From the NCBI GenBank assembly GCA_024674815.1, contig GCA_024674815.1_4104.1: DNA of 64,000 nucleotides. The stretch is one strand, 5' to 3'. Below, piece by piece: positions 16,602 to 45,835 of this stretch. The stretch's first letter is position 1. Each line of letters begins with the position of its first letter. Source of the DNA: a phage. The notes under the pieces were generated by a model. That model did not search any database and was not told the DNA's origin. It was given only the letters and a program-made list of their open reading frames with translations. The position numbers were made by a program, and so were the translations under genes.

Positions 16602-16985
16602 TTACTTCTTGAACTTATGTTTTTCACTTTCGATTGCATTCACGATTTCATCATGAATTTTACGAAGATTGTGAGTTTTCTTTAGAGATTCATGTAATGC
16701 ACGGAATGCAGAGTGTACAGTTGCTTTAAAGTGCTCTTTAGGAGTTACTTTAAGTTTCTCGATAATATCACGTACATAGATTGGGTGATCCTCAAACACA
16801 CGATTAAGCTCATGACCTAGTGATTCTAGGCTAAATGCTTTTTCACGGGATGGACGATCATGTGCAAGACTTTGGTCTGGTTTTAGAAGACCTAGTGAAT
16901 CTAGATACTTGTGCTTATGTGCATTGTCTAGACCAGAAATATCAACATCATGTGATGGATCTTTCTTATTCCATTTATCAACCAT
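16602..16985 (-). CDS. hypothetical protein (paralog of 15079..16332)
   Basis: HKYLDSLGLLKPDQ and KLKVTPKEHFKATV motifs shared. Confidence 0.6.
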   Translation of the reverse strand: MVDKWNKKDPSHDVDISGLDNAHKHKYLDSLGLLKPDQSLAHDRPSREKAFSLESLGHELNRVFEDHPIYVRDIIEKLKVTPKEHFKATVHSAFRALHESLKKTHNLRKIHDEIVNAIESEKHKFKK

Positions 16986-26427: not shown

Positions 26428-27216
26428 TTAAATGTTAGTAGTATAGTACTTGATTTCGTTTTGAATTGCAAGTTCTATTTGTTTATTGAAAAGAATTCCA
26501 AACTCTTTGATTGATTCACAATCGAATTCAATAGAAAAAGTATACTCTGGTACACGTACATTGTCAATACCCAAATACTCTTTTATGTAAATTTTAATGA
26601 GTTCACATAGTGCAGTACTAAGACATTGAATTTCAAAATGTTTTGCACCTTTGTCAAAATACTTGAATGCATCAATATCACCCACAATAAAACTATTCTT
26701 TAATGTAGTGAATAGGTTCTCAGGAAACACGGTAATAGGTGACATTGATTTAAGAATGTATGTATCTTTGGCATTCTTAATGTACTCAATGAAGCAGTAG
26801 TTAACGTCAGGCTCGATTGAACGATCCGCGTTATGATACCAGTGTTTAAACTCACTGTATTCAGCAAACTTATGCTGGCGTAATGCGTTACAATCTTCAC
26901 ACAGTGCAGTCATGTTCTCTTTATCATTACCGCCCTGAAGACAGTCCAGTACATTATGGTCTAACGTCATGCGTACAAGGCGTTTCCCTTTAAGTACATA
27001 AGGTCTGAATTTATAACGATCTTTAGTACTGTGCTTGTGTAAAGTGAATACTACATTAGATTCACCGCAACAATCACATTTAAAGCCATCACGTGACATT
27101 ACATGAATGAGTTTTCGAGTATTTGGACCAAACTCTGATTTGGTAATGTTACCTACAATTTCTGATGGTTGGTAATATTTTGAATTCCGTCGAATCAGTT
27201 CATCTATAGTGCTCAT
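26428..27216 (-). CDS. HNH endonuclease (homing-endonuclease-like)
   Basis: DHNVLDCLQGGNDKENMTALCEDCN HNH motif; CDCCGE zinc-finger-like N-terminal part. Confidence 0.75.
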   Translation of the reverse strand: MSTIDELIRRNSKYYQPSEIVGNITKSEFGPNTRKLIHVMSRDGFKCDCCGESNVVFTLHKHSTKDRYKFRPYVLKGKRLVRMTLDHNVLDCLQGGNDKENMTALCEDCNALRQHKFAEYSEFKHWYHNADRSIEPDVNYCFIEYIKNAKDTYILKSMSPITVFPENLFTTLKNSFIVGDIDAFKYFDKGAKHFEIQCLSTALCELIKIYIKEYLGIDNVRVPEYTFSIEFDCESIKEFGILFNKQIELAIQNEIKYYTTNI

Positions 27217-27217
27217 T

Positions 27218-27448
27218 TTACATTAATCCTTCTATGCTACAACCAATAAGTACTTTTTTCACTTCAATAACTCGTACCAAATAGAATCCATTTGAAAAGT
27301 TAAAACTATACATTTGTACTAAGGCATCTGCTTCAGATTTCGCACGGATACATGATAGATAAATTTCACGTATATCACCATCCAACGATACTTGTTTCTC
27401 TGCATTGATGACAATAGAACGAATCTCAAAACGAACGCCATAACTCAT
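27218..27448 (-). CDS. hypothetical protein
   Basis: 76-aa ORF. Confidence 0.5.
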   Translation of the reverse strand: MSYGVRFEIRSIVINAEKQVSLDGDIREIYLSCIRAKSEADALVQMYSFNFSNGFYLVRVIEVKKVLIGCSIEGLM

Positions 27449-27654
27449 TGAGTTTGTCCTACAATAAGCTTTGTGTTAGTATTACTATTGTAACACCACA
27501 TTTGTTCTTTACTAACTGTAATCCAAATATCTTTGTTTACTTGTTCGTATGTACTATCACGTACTGCTATGCATTGATTCATGGAATTCATTGGGGTTAT
27601 TTGTACACCGGAATTAACAGAGAAAGCGACTACTAAAAAGATTACTGAATTCAT
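27445..27654 (-). CDS. small secreted protein
   Basis: N-terminal hydrophobic signal-like segment. Confidence 0.5.
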   Translation of the reverse strand: MNSVIFLVVAFSVNSGVQITPMNSMNQCIAVRDSTYEQVNKDIWITVSKEQMWCYNSNTNTKLIVGQTQ

Positions 27655-28270
27655 TTGATATTCCTTAATGGTTAATCATCCATCTCTTCGAGATGTCTGT
27701 TCGCTTCTAATACTACGTATTCTACGCGAATGATTAATAACTGTCAAGGACTTTTAATATTGACGGGATTTGAGGAAGGGATTTTTCTTCCCCCCACAAG
27801 GAGGGAAATTTGACGCTGATGGTATCAGAGCTATTGCATTGAAGATTACTCATAAAGAGTGCGAAAGCGGGTCATCCTGTTTCTCTCTACTTCAGTTTCA
27901 TATGACGGTCTACACTTTTAAACATAGTGTATCTTCATTAAGTATCTATGCAATCAAATACTTAATGTGAGTACTCAAATTTTGGACGCAACTTTCCTGT
28001 ACAAAATTCGATAACTCTCCCTTAGATAATTCGTAAGGTGTTATCCTTATATGTCTATCAAGGAACCACCAGCTATCCTAACGTGGTTCTTTATACAGCC
28101 GCATTGCCGTGAGGGGTTCAAACTATGCCCACATCTAACGGGTTTCTTTTGCTGTTCGCACTGTCGGACTGCTCAACTGCCCTCTACGTTTTCGAGTGGA
28201 TCAGGTACATGAATATCATGCCAACAGAATTGTACAAGATAATTATATCACAAACTTTTACTTCATCCCA
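27655..28270. other. ~600-bp ORF-free, relatively GC-rich region (candidate structured ncRNA or regulatory region)
   Basis: No ORF of 60 aa or more except a weak 66-aa plus ORF; composition differs from flanks. Confidence 0.4.
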
Positions 28271-28278
28271 TAAAAAAA

Positions 28279-28296
28279 GGTTGGCATAAGCCAACC
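28279..28296 (-). terminator. Rho-independent terminator after sigma-factor gene
   Basis: ggttggcataagccaacc hairpin followed by U-run on minus strand. Confidence 0.65.
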
Positions 28297-28304
28297 CTTG
28301 TTCT

Positions 28305-29270
28305 TTAGAAATCTTCGTATTCGTACCCTTTTGCAAGTACTAACTTCTTAAGCTTTTGCATAGCTTCACTGTACTTTCGATGTATTGATGAACGGGATTT
28401 AACATATTTTCCATTATCATCAACAAAACCATTATCAGCAATCTCACGAAGCGTTTCAGGTTCATATTCACCTAGACCATGAACACGCTGGATAATCTCA
28501 CGTTCTTTAGTACTCAATTCGTTGGTCAGTTCATTGATAGCATAACGCAAAGGTGCACGGATACTATCAACATTGAGGTTAAAATCAGAAGCAGGTGAAT
28601 GAATAATGTCACCTAATGTACCATCTGTAACACCGTCTAATGGTGCATCCAGCGAAGTGTATTCGCTTTGAAATAACAAACAATTATTAACATGCTGAAT
28701 CTCAATCCCAGTACCCTCTGAGATTATTTCAGGAGTTGGGCGAACACCATGTTTACGCATATATTCCTGACAGAATCTTTTTACTTTGATCTTATGAACA
28801 CTCATATAACGTGGGAAGTGTACCATATAGTTAGCGTCAGAACTTTCGTTATAGACTGTCATGTAAATACTAGAAGAAGCATAGGTAATGAACTTAACAT
28901 TCTTATTAAGATCAAAGGTTTTTAGTGCTCTCATGAACCCCTCAACACCATATGAAATCTTATCTTCAAATGGGATATAACAAGTACATTTACTTGCTAC
29001 ATCAATAATCAGTCCATAATTGTAACGAACTAACAGTTCAGTGTTTTTCTTTACATTGATACCAGCTTGAATATCACGAATTAGATCTTCATTGGAAACA
29101 TTTGGTGGTCGCTTAAGTGTAATATTATATTTGAAACTGCTTTGTACTTTACCTTCATTATCATCTTTATCTTCAACGAAATCTAAGGCTTCTAGTGTGT
29201 TGACTTCTTCATTAGCAAAACATTCATCCAGAACTTCTTCGGCAATTGTATTTAAATCAAGCTTTTTCAC
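28305..29270 (-). CDS. sigma-70-family RNA polymerase sigma factor
   Basis: Region-2-like YGVEGFMRALKTFD...KFITYA; region-4-like C-terminus; 321 aa. Confidence 0.6.
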   Translation of the reverse strand: MKKLDLNTIAEEVLDECFANEEVNTLEALDFVEDKDDNEGKVQSSFKYNITLKRPPNVSNEDLIRDIQAGINVKKNTELLVRYNYGLIIDVASKCTCYIPFEDKISYGVEGFMRALKTFDLNKNVKFITYASSSIYMTVYNESSDANYMVHFPRYMSVHKIKVKRFCQEYMRKHGVRPTPEIISEGTGIEIQHVNNCLLFQSEYTSLDAPLDGVTDGTLGDIIHSPASDFNLNVDSIRAPLRYAINELTNELSTKEREIIQRVHGLGEYEPETLREIADNGFVDDNGKYVKSRSSIHRKYSEAMQKLKKLVLAKGYEYEDF

Positions 29271-40540: not shown

Positions 40541-40630
<90 letters not shown>

Positions 40631-40642
40631 AGAAGTAAGATA

Positions 40643-40743
<101 letters not shown>

Positions 40744-40795
40744 GCCAAGAGTCGGCATAGGTGCAGCACTACAAAGTTCTTCAAGCTGCTTGGTA

Positions 40796-40827
<32 letters not shown>

Positions 40828-40828
40828 T

Positions 40829-40885
<57 letters not shown>

Positions 40886-40887
40886 TA

Positions 40888-41014
<127 letters not shown>

Positions 41015-41033
41015 GCATACTCGAAGTACCTCT

Positions 41034-41071
<38 letters not shown>

Positions 41072-41096
41072 AACTGAATACTTACATCCTACGTCC

Positions 41097-41438
<342 letters not shown>

Positions 41439-41447
41439 TAATACCCG

Positions 41448-41849
41448 CTAGTAGTTTAAGTCTGCGGCGTTGAATACACCAAGTGAAGTCTTACCACGTA
41501 GTTTAGGTGAAAGGACATACTTTGTCAATTTCTTTTTACCGTACCAGTGATTGAATTCGTCTTCAGTAACATGTGGGTTCTGGAAATCGTATTCACGTTT
41601 CTTATGAAGTTTTTTAGCTTGTTCTGCAATCTTAGTTCGTTGATCTTCTGGAATGTCGAATGTATTGTTACGTTTGCACCATTCGTGCACTAATGCTTCC
41701 AGAAGGAACTGTTCAGTTTCTTTGACTAGAGTGATTTTAGTCAAGCCTTTTTCGATGTTCATATAATCATCGACATATCCATTCCAAATAACAATCTCTG
41801 GATTGCCGTCAATCTCTTGAAGCATTTTGATCAAGTCATTCTTTTTCAT
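41448..41849 (-). CDS. hypothetical protein
   Basis: 133-aa ORF. Confidence 0.6.
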   Translation of the reverse strand: MKKNDLIKMLQEIDGNPEIVIWNGYVDDYMNIEKGLTKITLVKETEQFLLEALVHEWCKRNNTFDIPEDQRTKIAEQAKKLHKKREYDFQNPHVTEDEFNHWYGKKKLTKYVLSPKLRGKTSLGVFNAADLNY

Positions 41850-41857
41850 TTAAATTC

Positions 41858-42115
<258 letters not shown>

Positions 42116-42124
42116 ATTTGTTTC

Positions 42125-42310
42125 CTATGAAATGAATGTAGCGTTAATTCCCATTATAAATGAAAATATACCAAACAATATCAACCCGATTGGTACAAAG
42201 ATCATAGATCTATTTCCATGTTTCGATAAAAATCGTTCAACTGTAATTAAACGTATTGATATCGGAACCATTATAATAATATACAATATTGAAAGAATTA
42301 AAAGTTGCAT
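42125..42310 (-). CDS. small membrane protein
   Basis: 61 aa, two hydrophobic segments. Confidence 0.45.
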   Translation of the reverse strand: MQLLILSILYIIIMVPISIRLITVERFLSKHGNRSMIFVPIGLILFGIFSFIMGINATFIS

Positions 42311-42323
42311 TTTAATTTCCTAT

Positions 42324-42749
<426 letters not shown>

Positions 42750-42765
42750 ATATCAATACTTAATA

Positions 42766-43143
<378 letters not shown>

Positions 43144-43149
43144 ATCACC

Positions 43150-43500
43150 AACTTTAATTAAAAAAATGGATGGTGACGCTTTTAAACGCCGCTGTTAATT
43201 CAGCTTTATAACCACCCGTTTTAACTTGCCTTTCGGCTACCTTGACGTGGGGCGTACAGGCTACTAAAAGCAACTACTGTAAACATATTTCCACGCCTTA
43301 CCCTTTTAAATAAAAGTCCATCCGGTTTTACAGTTTGGTGAAGGATAGTCACCTCTAGTTTAAACCTGCTAGTCAAGTAATAATTGCCTATCGTCCAATT
43401 ATCAAACCCGTCTAGGTTAACATTCACCACTTCCTAGAGTACCAGAGATCTTGTTCTGGATTGCATCGACGTAACTTACACCATATACGTCTGATTGTGG
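43150..43500 (-). ncRNA. candidate small stable RNA region in tRNA cluster
   Basis: ORF-poor; directly downstream of near-consensus promoter at 43506-43534; exact ends unknown. Confidence 0.25.
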
Positions 43501-43505
43501 AATTC

Positions 43506-43543
<38 letters not shown>

Positions 43544-43600
43544 ACAAATCTGGACGTTCATCTTTAAACATATTAATATCCTCAGTACTGAATTATTTAG

Positions 43601-44184
<584 letters not shown>

Positions 44185-44188
<4 letters not shown>

Positions 44189-44345
44189 ATTCGTACCAGT
44201 AGTTCAATTAAGTACATTTCATATGCTGGATCGTTGATAAGTTTATCATACATATGTGGCTCTGAAATGAATTCCCAATGATACTTTAGCCATTTACCGA
44301 TACCCGAATATCTAAAATTAATGTCATTCATCCATTCTTCATGTG

Positions 44346-44349
<4 letters not shown>
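44185..44349 (-). CDS. MTHEEW mini-protein paralog (~54 aa; approximate coordinates)
   Basis: Starts MTHEEWMNDINFRYSGIG; near-duplicate of next copy. Confidence 0.45.
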
Positions 44350-44510
<161 letters not shown>

Positions 44511-44515
44511 GGTTT

Positions 44516-44617
<102 letters not shown>

Positions 44618-44621
44618 ATTT

Positions 44622-44737
<116 letters not shown>

Positions 44738-44754
44738 ATGTGATGTCCCATTAT

Positions 44755-45027
44755 TTATGATTCAGTTTGAGGATTAAATTTGATAAATTCATCTTTATGT
44801 TCATCTTCAAACGCAATATCTTCTACGTATTCAGGCCAAATCGTAGTGTCTCCTTGATAAAAGCGATAATTATCAAATACTGCACTACGCGTTCTTCCCT
44901 GTTCCCAGCCAATCGTACAGTCATGATATACATCCCCACTACTTGTACGAATACTAATGGTGTCTTGAGTTTCATAAAGAACTTCAATGCGTGTGTTACG
45001 ATTTACGTTGAATTTTTCAAAATGCAT
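44755..45027 (-). CDS. hypothetical protein
   Basis: 90-aa ORF. Confidence 0.55.
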   Translation of the reverse strand: MHFEKFNVNRNTRIEVLYETQDTISIRTSSGDVYHDCTIGWEQGRTRSAVFDNYRFYQGDTTIWPEYVEDIAFEDEHKDEFIKFNPQTES

Positions 45028-45080
45028 AATATTATCCTCATCTAGAACCAGTGATAATCATTATATAATGAATTAATGAT

Positions 45081-45299
45081 TTATGCAAGTGTTTTAGATA
45101 CACCGACACCAATAATTCCAGTGATATCGATATGGATATTGGCAAGTTGATTACTATCATATGGGTTTGTTTCTGTAATAACCAATGTTGTATCATTGAC
45201 TAAAACCACAGTACCTTTTACACGATAACCATGTAGTAGTACTTGAACCTCATCTTCAGGTTTTAATGATTGAATAACTTCTAATAAAGTTGTTTCCAT
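45081..45299 (-). CDS. hypothetical protein (start trimmed)
   Basis: ORF; internal Met chosen to avoid overlap. Confidence 0.4.
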   Translation of the reverse strand: METTLLEVIQSLKPEDEVQVLLHGYRVKGTVVLVNDTTLVITETNPYDSNQLANIHIDITGIIGVGVSKTLA

Positions 45300-45315
45300 T
45301 TTTTGTATTCCTTGT

Positions 45316-45498
45316 TTAGTTTTGATTATTTGACTTTCTAAATGCCAGTTCGCATATAAACCAGGGTTTTCTGGTATCCAAAACATATGACCTGAAAAGA
45401 TTTTCATCTCTTAATATATCATAATGTACCTGACGAATGCCATTCCCAAAGCAGTCATGTTCTTTATGCTGTTTGGACATCCATTCTTCGTGTGTCAT
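45316..45498 (-). CDS. MTHEEW mini-protein paralog
   Basis: MTHEEWMSKQHKEHDCFGNGIRQVHYDIL. Confidence 0.55.
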   Translation of the reverse strand: MTHEEWMSKQHKEHDCFGNGIRQVHYDILRDENLFRSYVLDTRKPWFICELAFRKSNNQN

Positions 45499-45499
45499 T

Positions 45500-45835
<336 letters not shown>

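Follow-up and report, generated by a model that had tools for sequence, protein, structure and literature searches.

A predicted gene for a large pseudoknotted non-coding RNA, present in several copies in Rak2-like jumbo phages and carried by bacterial islands

Introduction

The GOLLD, ROOL and OLE RNAs are longer than 400 nucleotides (nt), are built from many helices and pseudoknots and are associated with phages or prophages, and their function is unknown (PMC12286853). Phage PA5oct, a distant Rak2-like relative, has four transcribed regions of 236-619 nt that are free of open reading frames (ORFs), ncRNA001-004, two of which are highly expressed throughout infection (PMC7318152). Here, a stretch of 64,000 nt of phage DNA (GenBank assembly GCA_024674815.1, contig GCA_024674815.1_4104.1; referred to as the window) was examined, and the gap downstream of its sigma-factor gene is predicted from sequence to be an independently transcribed minus-strand gene for a large pseudoknotted non-coding RNA that, like the PA5oct RNAs, is ORF-free and can occur four times per genome. 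The source phage is an Asteriusvirus, a Rak2-like jumbo myovirus of Escherichia coli, and the 1.1 kb around the locus shares 100% identity with phage vB_EcoM_E9.1 and 99% with phage 121Q.

Two kinds of origin that use an RNA primer offer a further comparison. As reviewed for ColE1, an upstream rG stretch in the transcript pairs with a downstream dC stretch in the template, seeding a persistent hybrid, and the T4 origins oriF (uvsY) and oriG (34) are described in review as phage promoters, with the leading strand primed from a persistent hybrid made by the transcript. The Rak2-like phages are T4-related myoviruses, and just as there are several origins in the T4 genome there are several copies of the RNA element in each Rak2-like genome.

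To our knowledge, neither a replication origin nor an RNA gene other than those for transfer RNA (tRNA) has so far been defined in Rak2-like jumbo phages, which are candidates for therapy or biocontrol against E. coli, Salmonella, Klebsiella and Erwinia. The locus described here is a concrete candidate for both.

A non-coding gap downstream of the sigma-factor gene

The local genes are on the minus strand of the window, and the gap of 650 nt (27655-28304) is bounded by the sigma-factor coding sequence (CDS) and by a CDS ending at 27654, the position at which this next gene downstream starts. The annotations of phages 121Q and UE-S1 leave the gap empty of genes; that of UE-S1 labels part of it 'repeat_region'. 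The initial annotation of the window, made from the sequence alone, had described a region with no credible ORF, richer in G and C than its flanks and lying just downstream of the terminator of the sigma-factor gene, and all three descriptions were borne out. The longest ORF in the gap is no more than 66 amino acids (aa) and none of the gap ORFs matched a PHROG family, while two small flanking genes did. The G+C content is 0.405-0.45 over 27700-28299 compared with 0.32-0.37 in the flanks, and an intrinsic terminator was found (Table 1) that separates the RNA gene from the sigma-factor transcript.

A set of 91 non-redundant full-length homologues was assembled by scanning IMG/VR, metagenomes and GTDB genomes for sequence patterns and then applying nhmmer. 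In each of these, every reading frame on both strands contains at least two stop codons, and the alignment includes 1815 indels that are not a multiple of three against 393 that are. The initial annotation had allowed that relatives might encode a conserved protein at this position; the frames are broken in all 91 homologues.

Three to six 'hypothetical proteins' are annotated across the gap in several GenBank records (accession numbers PP886230, PQ330092, OR699282, PQ390715 and others). Given the evidence for an RNA, these are almost certainly spurious and need correction.

Covariation points to a pseudoknotted RNA on the minus strand

Covariation was first seen on a 56-sequence MAFFT alignment scored by mutual information with average product correction (APC), in which the top column pairs were almost all Watson-Crick, had 3-5 pair types each and stacked into helices. 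The helices were then counted on a second alignment, A1, where 12 helices comprising 57 pairs were found with 97.8% of cells paired, compared with 75.9% after shuffling and 34-45% when the partners were slid by 1-3 columns. Changes on both sides that preserve pairing were seen in 46 of the 57 pairs (625 cells), a level reached by none of 500 shuffles. Choosing the helices from the same sequences makes this covariation score circular in part, a caveat that does not apply to the near-perfect pairing, the stacking or the slid controls. With the 91 sequences the 12 helices were found again together with extra ones (12-17 covarying helices, ~15). The helices of the 3' core (helices 7-12 in A1) are 97-100% paired with compensatory changes in 23 of 29 pairs.

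G-U or U-G combinations occupy 468 cells compared with 40 for A-C or C-A, and several G-U pairs are almost invariant, which establishes the minus strand of the window as the functional one. RNAalifold energies were alike on both strands. Secondary structure prediction and covariation against homologous regions were among the checks proposed in the initial annotation. The latter supports the helices, whereas folding of the single sequence (z = -1.53) was uninformative, as expected of a pseudoknotted RNA.

There are four sets of crossing helices (A/B, C/D, H/I, and J with K and L; Table 1), and from the alignments these are likely to be either pseudoknots or mutually exclusive folds. Near-invariant single strands in the 5' domain are GAAACCCG, CGGCAAUGCGGC, AUAAAG and GAUAGACAUAU, and further near-invariant unpaired stretches are AGAUGAG, UAAGGGAG, GACCGU and ACCCGC. 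A hairpin module with the loop UACAAUAUAGAUCCGUCC varies in location from copy to copy, being found on one helix, on another, or on both, and the peripheral modules of large RNAs are known to shift location in this manner. With more than 400 nt and many covarying helices, including crossing ones, kept across distant genomes, the element falls into the descriptive class of large structured non-coding RNAs. A stable non-coding RNA, one of the candidates originally listed for the gap, is thus strongly supported by the compensatory covariation, the strand asymmetry, the lack of a conserved ORF and the presence of a promoter of its own.

The promoter and transcription unit

The predicted promoter of the RNA gene consists of TGGGAT and an extended -10 element, TGATATAAT, from which transcription would start at about position 28235. 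All copies are preceded by a nearly invariant TGnTATAAT, and the -35 element, 17 nt ahead of the -10, is TGAAAC in most genera and TGRGAC/TGRGAY in Asteriusvirus. A 'divergent RpoD-like' promoter class with the -35 sequence TGAAACG was reported for phages CBB and GAP32 in the CBB paper. The exact pattern TGGGAY-N14-TGATATAAT occurs at three sites in the window compared with 0.00 expected, one of them upstream of a tRNA gene (Table 1), and appears to define a separate class of promoter in this phage. In 121Q, 25 loose matches to the pattern were found, 20 of them on the gene strand.

The element has this promoter class in common with the phage tRNA genes, and like them is a stand-alone RNA gene between protein genes, but it is neither a tRNA nor a transfer-messenger RNA (tmRNA) and is six times larger. 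In about half of the copies, for example that at 192.8 kb in 121Q, the first ~45 nt of the transcript, directly after the -10 box, include a stable hairpin with a U-run behind it; the window copy is without it. This early hairpin might act as an attenuator or protect the 5' end. A separate promoter within the gap (27719-27747) serves the genes from 27654 downward and lies outside the RNA family, as its sequence is not kept in the other copies.

Comparison with known RNA families

A gathering-threshold scan of the whole window against Rfam 15 returned only tRNAs. When 27400-28500 was scanned at E<=10, only chance-level matches were obtained, with scores of at most 19.7 bits compared with gathering scores of 37-88; the families covered include RNase P, tmRNA, 6S, group I and II introns, GOLLD, ROOL, OLE, HEARO and RNAI. 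No tRNA or tmRNA was found in 27400-28500 by ARAGORN or Rfam. The Rfam scan had been proposed with the initial annotation, and as it gave no relevant family the suggestion of a remnant of an intron or of a known ribozyme finds no support; a binding-site array is likewise not supported as such. By eye, likenesses to a hammerhead core, a C/D box or k-turn, a T-loop and the RNase P conserved regions (CR) were noticed, and each fails at variable positions or in Rfam.

In the literature searched, no description of the RNA was found, the UE-S1, CBB, PA5oct, Fremin 2023, jumbo-satellite and transposon-mutagenesis papers making no mention of it. The RNA family, which has neither an Rfam family nor a published description that we found, is new. 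It resembles GOLLD, ROOL and OLE in being large, phage-linked and rich in helices and pseudoknots, but differs in lacking an Rfam match, in being found in jumbo phages of Enterobacterales, in having 4-5 diverged copies, and in carrying two repeats (M1 and M2, see below) that vary in concert. A hidden Markov model (HMM) of the family showed no similarity to the PA5oct region that holds ncRNA001 and ncRNA002.

Copies at syntenic sites in Rak2-like phages

Using blastn, the region was matched in 62 phage records, all of them Rak2-like, at 4-5 places per record. The hosts of these phages belong to Escherichia, Salmonella, Erwinia, Yersinia, Serratia, Pectobacterium, Cronobacter, Xanthomonas and Klebsiella. 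Matches in distant genera are confined to the non-coding core (27758-28205 in the window), at ~70%, and do not take in the flanking genes. The element was absent from the phages other than Rak2-like jumbo phages in a collection of 50,697 records, and a repeat search of the window itself did not find a second copy.

The four copies in the 121Q genome share one orientation, and each lies in a gap free of CDSs (Table 1); two copy sites are marked 'repeat_region' without comment in the UE-S1 annotation. When the flanks of copies from other genera were placed on the 121Q map, they fell at the same five sites, at 56, 90, 193, 247 and 327 kb. The 56-kb copy has been lost from 121Q, while other Rak2-like genera have five copies and a few lineages have extra copies at other sites. 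This indicates that the paralogues are old and largely syntenic. The window copy shares 62-70% identity with the paralogues in its own genome and 53-61% with the most distant members. That the element is multi-copy, syntenic across genera and on the minus strand goes beyond what the initial annotation had recorded.

In contigs of more distant jumbo phages from metagenomes (loci L137, L142, L147, L166, L168, L169, L177, L178 and L189), the match to the RNA model is limited to its 3' half, positions 250-520, and these partial copies occupy other genome sites. The family is therefore broader than the 62 isolates suggest.

The 3' end carries two repeats that agree within each copy

The body of the RNA is closed by the repeat M1, and a direct repeat of it, M2, lies beyond an intervening hairpin (Table 1). 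In approximately half of the copies, though not in that of the window, M1 is followed by a terminator-like hairpin and a U-run, and a T-run of at least 5 within the 75 nt upstream of the G-run was found in 38 of 75 copies. All copies keep the 3' hairpin and M2 past the M1/terminator region. The 3' arm of this hairpin, GGGGGG(A)UGAA, is nearly invariant, whereas the 5' arm is variable yet retains pairing, often via U-G. An invariant G6 run followed by an A-rich stretch is a constant feature near the 3' end. A small ORF starting from an AUG after the G-run was rejected, as the AUG is missing from the window copy and the indels are out of frame.

Within a copy M1 and M2 agree. At alignment columns 460 and 528 the combination is UU in 55 copies and CC in 36, with no discordant case, and at columns 469 and 536 it is GG in 53, AA in 28 and GA in 9. 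Rare variants (GUGUCA; CUUCAAG in Rak2; UUGUCAG; and CGACAA in a Serratia island) are found in both repeats of the same copy. Paralogues in one genome carry differing variant pairs, hence a single sequence-specific protein cannot be the cause. No partner complementary to M1 or M2 was found above background within the RNA, and no column covaries with them in Watson-Crick fashion. Agreement within a copy, together with the lack of an internal partner, suggests a nucleic-acid relation in cis. This unusual evolutionary signature points to an RNA-DNA interaction or another interaction in cis.

Copies in bacterial islands

The element was also found at the edge of an integrated element in six bacterial or metagenome records (Table 1). 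The copy in E. coli LR-29-1 is full length and has a promoter of the coliphage type (TGGGAT...TGATATAAT), while the Serratia and Silvania copies have a promoter of the TGAAAC type. The islands have nothing in common with 121Q except the RNA element and one weak protein match. It may be that these islands are satellites of Rak2-like phages, or decoys against them, and a dependency between phage and island (satellite, decoy or defence) becomes testable. A 2025 report that a Pseudomonas jumbo phage transduces integrase-bearing islands provides a precedent for such a dependency, and the element is not described in that paper.

Other genes of the islands encode CI-like S24 repressors, DUF4326, DUF488 and dual-OB proteins, the islands are located near tilS/rof, ffs, thiM or cpdB, and rof is duplicated at the junction of the Serratia fonticola island. 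In the island of the Enterobacteriaceae metagenome-assembled genome (MAG; L115 5840-6450), the 1 kb preceding the RNA holds further TGAAAC-N17-TATACT promoters. Their -10 sequence, CTATACT, also resembles the sigma-S preference.

Possible functions of the RNA

An origin of replication, also among the candidates first listed for the gap, is compatible with the evidence. The reading that we prefer, tentatively and by analogy, is that the RNA may be a cis-acting pre-primer or an R-loop-forming origin transcript, though this falls somewhat short of an even chance. Host RNA polymerase would start at the promoter (28270-28242) and the ~430-nt RNA body would fold. Some polymerases would then pass the leaky terminator that follows M1 in many copies. 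Since M1 and M2 have the same sequence, the M1 segment of the growing transcript could base-pair at M2 with the template strand of the DNA. This pairing, the invariant G6 and the A-rich stretch would jointly nucleate a persistent RNA-DNA hybrid, from which the leading strand would be primed or by which the other strand would be displaced so that a helicase can load. The 350-kb genome would be served by 4-5 elements, and islands would carry a copy so that an infecting jumbo phage replicates, and hence packages, them.

This origin model is favoured because it is the only one found that covers five features at once: the identity of M1 and M2 within a copy, which would follow if RNA M1 pairs with the template at M2; the conservation, past a leaky terminator, of M2 and of a hairpin of RNA type; the invariant G-run and the A-rich stretch after it; the dispersed, equally oriented and syntenic copies in a T4-related phage; and the capture by small islands of specifically this element alone. 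The same orientation of all 121Q copies, including one among genes of the opposite strand, and the two ParB/RepB genes beside the element in one island were also counted in favour of an origin role.

The element resembles RNA II of ColE1/pMB1 in having a transcript of ~500 nt, a sigma-70-type promoter and a required fold, and in repeating a short motif in the RNA-like strand, which in ColE1 is G6 (runs at 928 and 1175 of the ColE1 sequence) and here is M1 repeated as M2, with G6 followed by an A-rich stretch. It differs in being far more pseudoknotted, multi-copy in a lytic phage and absent from plasmids. The short motifs CGACC, GAACUGAGAUA, CGUCAG, G6 and AUGGAAAAACGCC were noticed as possible signs of homology to RNA II, and were then found not to be enriched at the ColE1 origin. 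No counterpart of the antisense RNA I was detected, the opposite strand giving no Rfam RNAI match and the alignments no conserved antisense promoter or terminator. The T4 origins combine a promoter with an unstructured unwinding element of ~50 bp, whereas here a conserved structured RNA of 430 nt comes first, and there is no sequence relation between them.

Several observations weigh against an origin role. The element is not known to be homologous to any origin described so far. The family HMM gave no match to ColE1 at E<=100 with nhmmer --max, and in an unbiased k-mer scan the ColE1 ori window ranked only among the top 10-56% of windows for shared k-mers; with neither homology nor motif enrichment, the likeness to ColE1 is a mechanistic analogy only. 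The element was absent from 72,556 plasmids searched with two different query copies. The A+T content over the 100 nt after M2 (69%) is near that of the genome (~66%; RNA body, 60%), so there is no obvious unwinding element of the T4 type, and the cumulative GC skew of 121Q tracks gene orientation and gives no origin signal. Conserved synteny is equally expected from neutral gene order, and the promoter class also drives a tRNA, as it would a stable trans-acting RNA. The fold is elaborate, with helices that cross in several places and many bases that are unpaired yet invariant; folds of this kind are more typical of ribozymes, riboswitches and RNAs of ribonucleoproteins (RNPs) than of primers, and we know of no primer with a fold as ornate.

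A fuller version, in which an undescribed class of pseudoknotted RNA would program replication initiation in Rak2-like phages, with M1 re-pairing at the M2 template to seed an R-loop, and would be pirated by islands that are the first Rak2-like satellites, is advanced with more doubt and as a whole is rather unlikely. If the origin model is true, the system would be of a known kind, an RNA-primed origin, with an unprecedented structured pre-primer.

Nearly as likely as an origin RNA is a stable trans-acting RNA of a new class. Candidates are a ribozyme, a scaffold for an RNP, an 'ornate' RNA that assembles with itself in the manner of GOLLD or ROOL, and a decoy or sponge that captures a factor of the host or the phage. 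The paralogous versions of such an RNA might then serve dosage or specificity, and it might be cargo of small mobile islands, a possibility held at the same strength. This alternative is a better match than the origin model to the fold, to its invariant loops and to a promoter of the tRNA type: 12-17 covarying helices with at least four crossing pairs and invariant unpaired nucleotides are kept from coliphages to Serratia islands at 53-70% identity, in an independent transcription unit whose promoter class is common to tRNA and whose body is followed by a terminator in roughly half of the copies. The island copies sit in the integrase/repressor accessory region, convergent with their neighbours, and other large phage-associated RNAs of unknown function exist (PMC12286853). 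A trans-acting role leaves unexplained why M1 and M2 are the same within copies yet differ among the copies of one genome, with no internal partner, and does not account for the conservation of M2 and of a hairpin of RNA type past the terminator. It would also be unusual for such an RNA to have 4-5 paralogues that are dispersed, syntenic and equally oriented, and the element has no Rfam relative. Few RNAs this large and complex lack a known function, and earlier ones proved to be ribozymes, RNP cores or self-assembling structures. If the trans-acting alternative is true, the element would be a new large RNA class, and a new RNA-only machine or ribozyme would be equally novel.

A different cis-acting element that uses M1 and M2, such as a recombination hot spot, a slipped-strand structure, a site of programmed deletion or template switching, or a genome-organising site coupled to transcription, is considerably less probable. 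The concerted identity of two direct repeats of 9-12 nt around a hairpin-forming sequence and the fixed genome positions and orientation are what such an element might show, and Kreuzer and Alberts reportedly found in 1985 that T4 origins coincide with recombination hot spots. However, the excess of G-U over A-C and the covariation extend over the 430 nt upstream of the repeats, indicating selection on a transcript and not on duplex DNA only, and no recombinase is consistently adjacent in the phages.

It is very improbable that the element is a long 5' leader, riboswitch-like or acting in antitermination, for the genes that follow. A promoter, a structured domain, a terminator-like hairpin and then downstream genes, which in the window are on the same strand, do form an attenuator-like layout. 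However, the downstream genes of the window have their own near-consensus promoter (27747-27719), and the genes downstream differ at every site. The 326.6-kb copy in 121Q faces a gene on the opposite strand, and island copies converge with CI-like or ParB genes; these convergent contexts largely refute a leader.

A degraded or frameshifted protein gene, or chance sequence, can be dismissed with near certainty despite the small proteins annotated in some records, as all homologues have stops in every frame, the indels are mostly out of frame, there is no PHROG match, the substitutions are compensatory for base pairing, and in distant genera the element is conserved more strongly than the genes that flank it.

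Feature coordinates and neighbouring genes

Table 1. Features of the RNA locus in the window, its copies in phage 121Q, and the bacterial or metagenome records that carry the element
Feature	Position	Strand	Details
Conserved structured RNA	27758-28235	minus	~478 nt; nhmmer core 28239-27757, E=8e-109
RNA-gene promoter (predicted)	28242-28270	minus	TGGGAT, 17-nt spacer, extended -10 TGATATAAT
Helix A	28227-28221 with 28167-28161	minus	7/8 pairs compensatory
Small variable hairpin	28220-28208	minus	
Hairpin B	28172-28170 with 28160-28158	minus	2/3 pairs compensatory; loop is the 3' strand of helix A (pseudoknot 1)
Helix C (5' domain, 28034-28155)	28155-28151 with 28099-28095	minus	
Pseudoknot pair D	28104-28102 with 28053-28051	minus	crosses C
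Hairpin E	28089-28083 with 28069-28063	minus	
Hairpin F	28049-28045 with 28038-28034	minus	only in the 56-sequence alignment; outside the A1 count, not found again with 91 sequences
Helix G	28017-28014 with 27972-27969	minus	preceded by invariant UAAGGGAG (segment 27969-28024)
Hairpin module inside helix G	stem 28011-28002 with 27984-27975	minus	loop UACAGGAAAGUUGCGUCC
Helix of the 3' core (27833-27967)	27967-27961 with 27942-27936	minus	
Hairpin H	27959-27955 with 27948-27944	minus	entire loop is the 5' strand of helix I
Long-range helix I	27954-27949 with 27838-27833	minus	
Further 3'-core hairpin	27931-27927 with 27915-27911	minus	
Helix J	27906-27902 with 27875-27871	minus	crosses K and L
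Helix K	27894-27890 with 27844-27840	minus	
Helix L	27887-27883 with 27867-27863	minus	
Helix M	27860-27857 with 27851-27848	minus	
Repeat M1	27809-27821	minus	CAUCAGCGUCAAA here, CUAUCAUCGUCAG in most copies; closes the RNA body
3' hairpin	27784-27808	minus	UUUCCCUCC-UUGU-GGGGGGAAGAAA
Repeat M2	27758-27772	minus	CAAAUCCCGUCAAUA here, family form CAAAUCUCGUCAG; direct repeat of M1; conservation stops here
Downstream-gene promoter	27719-27747	minus	sigma-70-like TTGACA-17-TAGAAT, 11/12 consensus matches; serves genes from 27654 downward
Intrinsic terminator of sigma-factor gene	28272-28299	minus	10-bp stem and T-run; also placed at 28299-28276; terminator annotated at the same place in UE-S1
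Sigma-factor gene	28305-29270	minus	321-aa ORF; RNA polymerase sigma factor by 121Q and UE-S1 annotation
Promoter-pattern site	44750-44722	minus	10 nt upstream of tRNA-Ser(tga) at 44711
Promoter-pattern site	17092-17064	minus	upstream of 127-aa ORF 16602-16985 (minus)
121Q copy	90.2-90.9 kb		counterpart of the window copy
121Q copy	192.8-193.3 kb		
121Q copy	247.5-248.0 kb		
121Q copy	326.6-327.1 kb		among opposite-strand genes
Serratia fonticola chromosome	NZ_CP183218 (L118 61-5490)		large serine recombinase, two ParB/RepB genes, element, duplicated rof and tilS
Silvania hatchlandensis			serine recombinase, element, CI-like repressor
Serratia sp. 2723			serine recombinase, then element
Enterobacteriaceae MAG	L115		element, then CI-like repressor; no recombinase within the 8 kb covered
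Metagenome contig			tyrosine integrase, element, CI-like repressor
E. coli LR-29-1	NZ_AP027515, ~3,473,000-3,483,600 (L191 15850-26650)		~10.7-kb island adjoining ffs

Two genes downstream of the RNA, a 262-aa ORF (26428-27216, minus strand) is annotated in 121Q as an HNH endonuclease (gp170). A further HNH gene, gp513, is near the 247-kb copy and the gene for an endonuclease VII, gp594, adjoins the 327-kb copy, which may be coincidence.

A tRNA cluster (40551-45813, minus strand) includes genes for Thr, Asn, Met, two Ser and Gly tRNAs identified by ARAGORN. The Gly gene (45741-45813) was missed by Rfam, which gave a weak tRNA at 44539-44617 (29.3 bits) that is annotated as tRNA-Leu(taa) in 121Q. 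Elsewhere in 121Q, in a part outside the window, an array of ~60-aa paralogous genes is followed by ~2 kb (135194-137161) without an annotated CDS.

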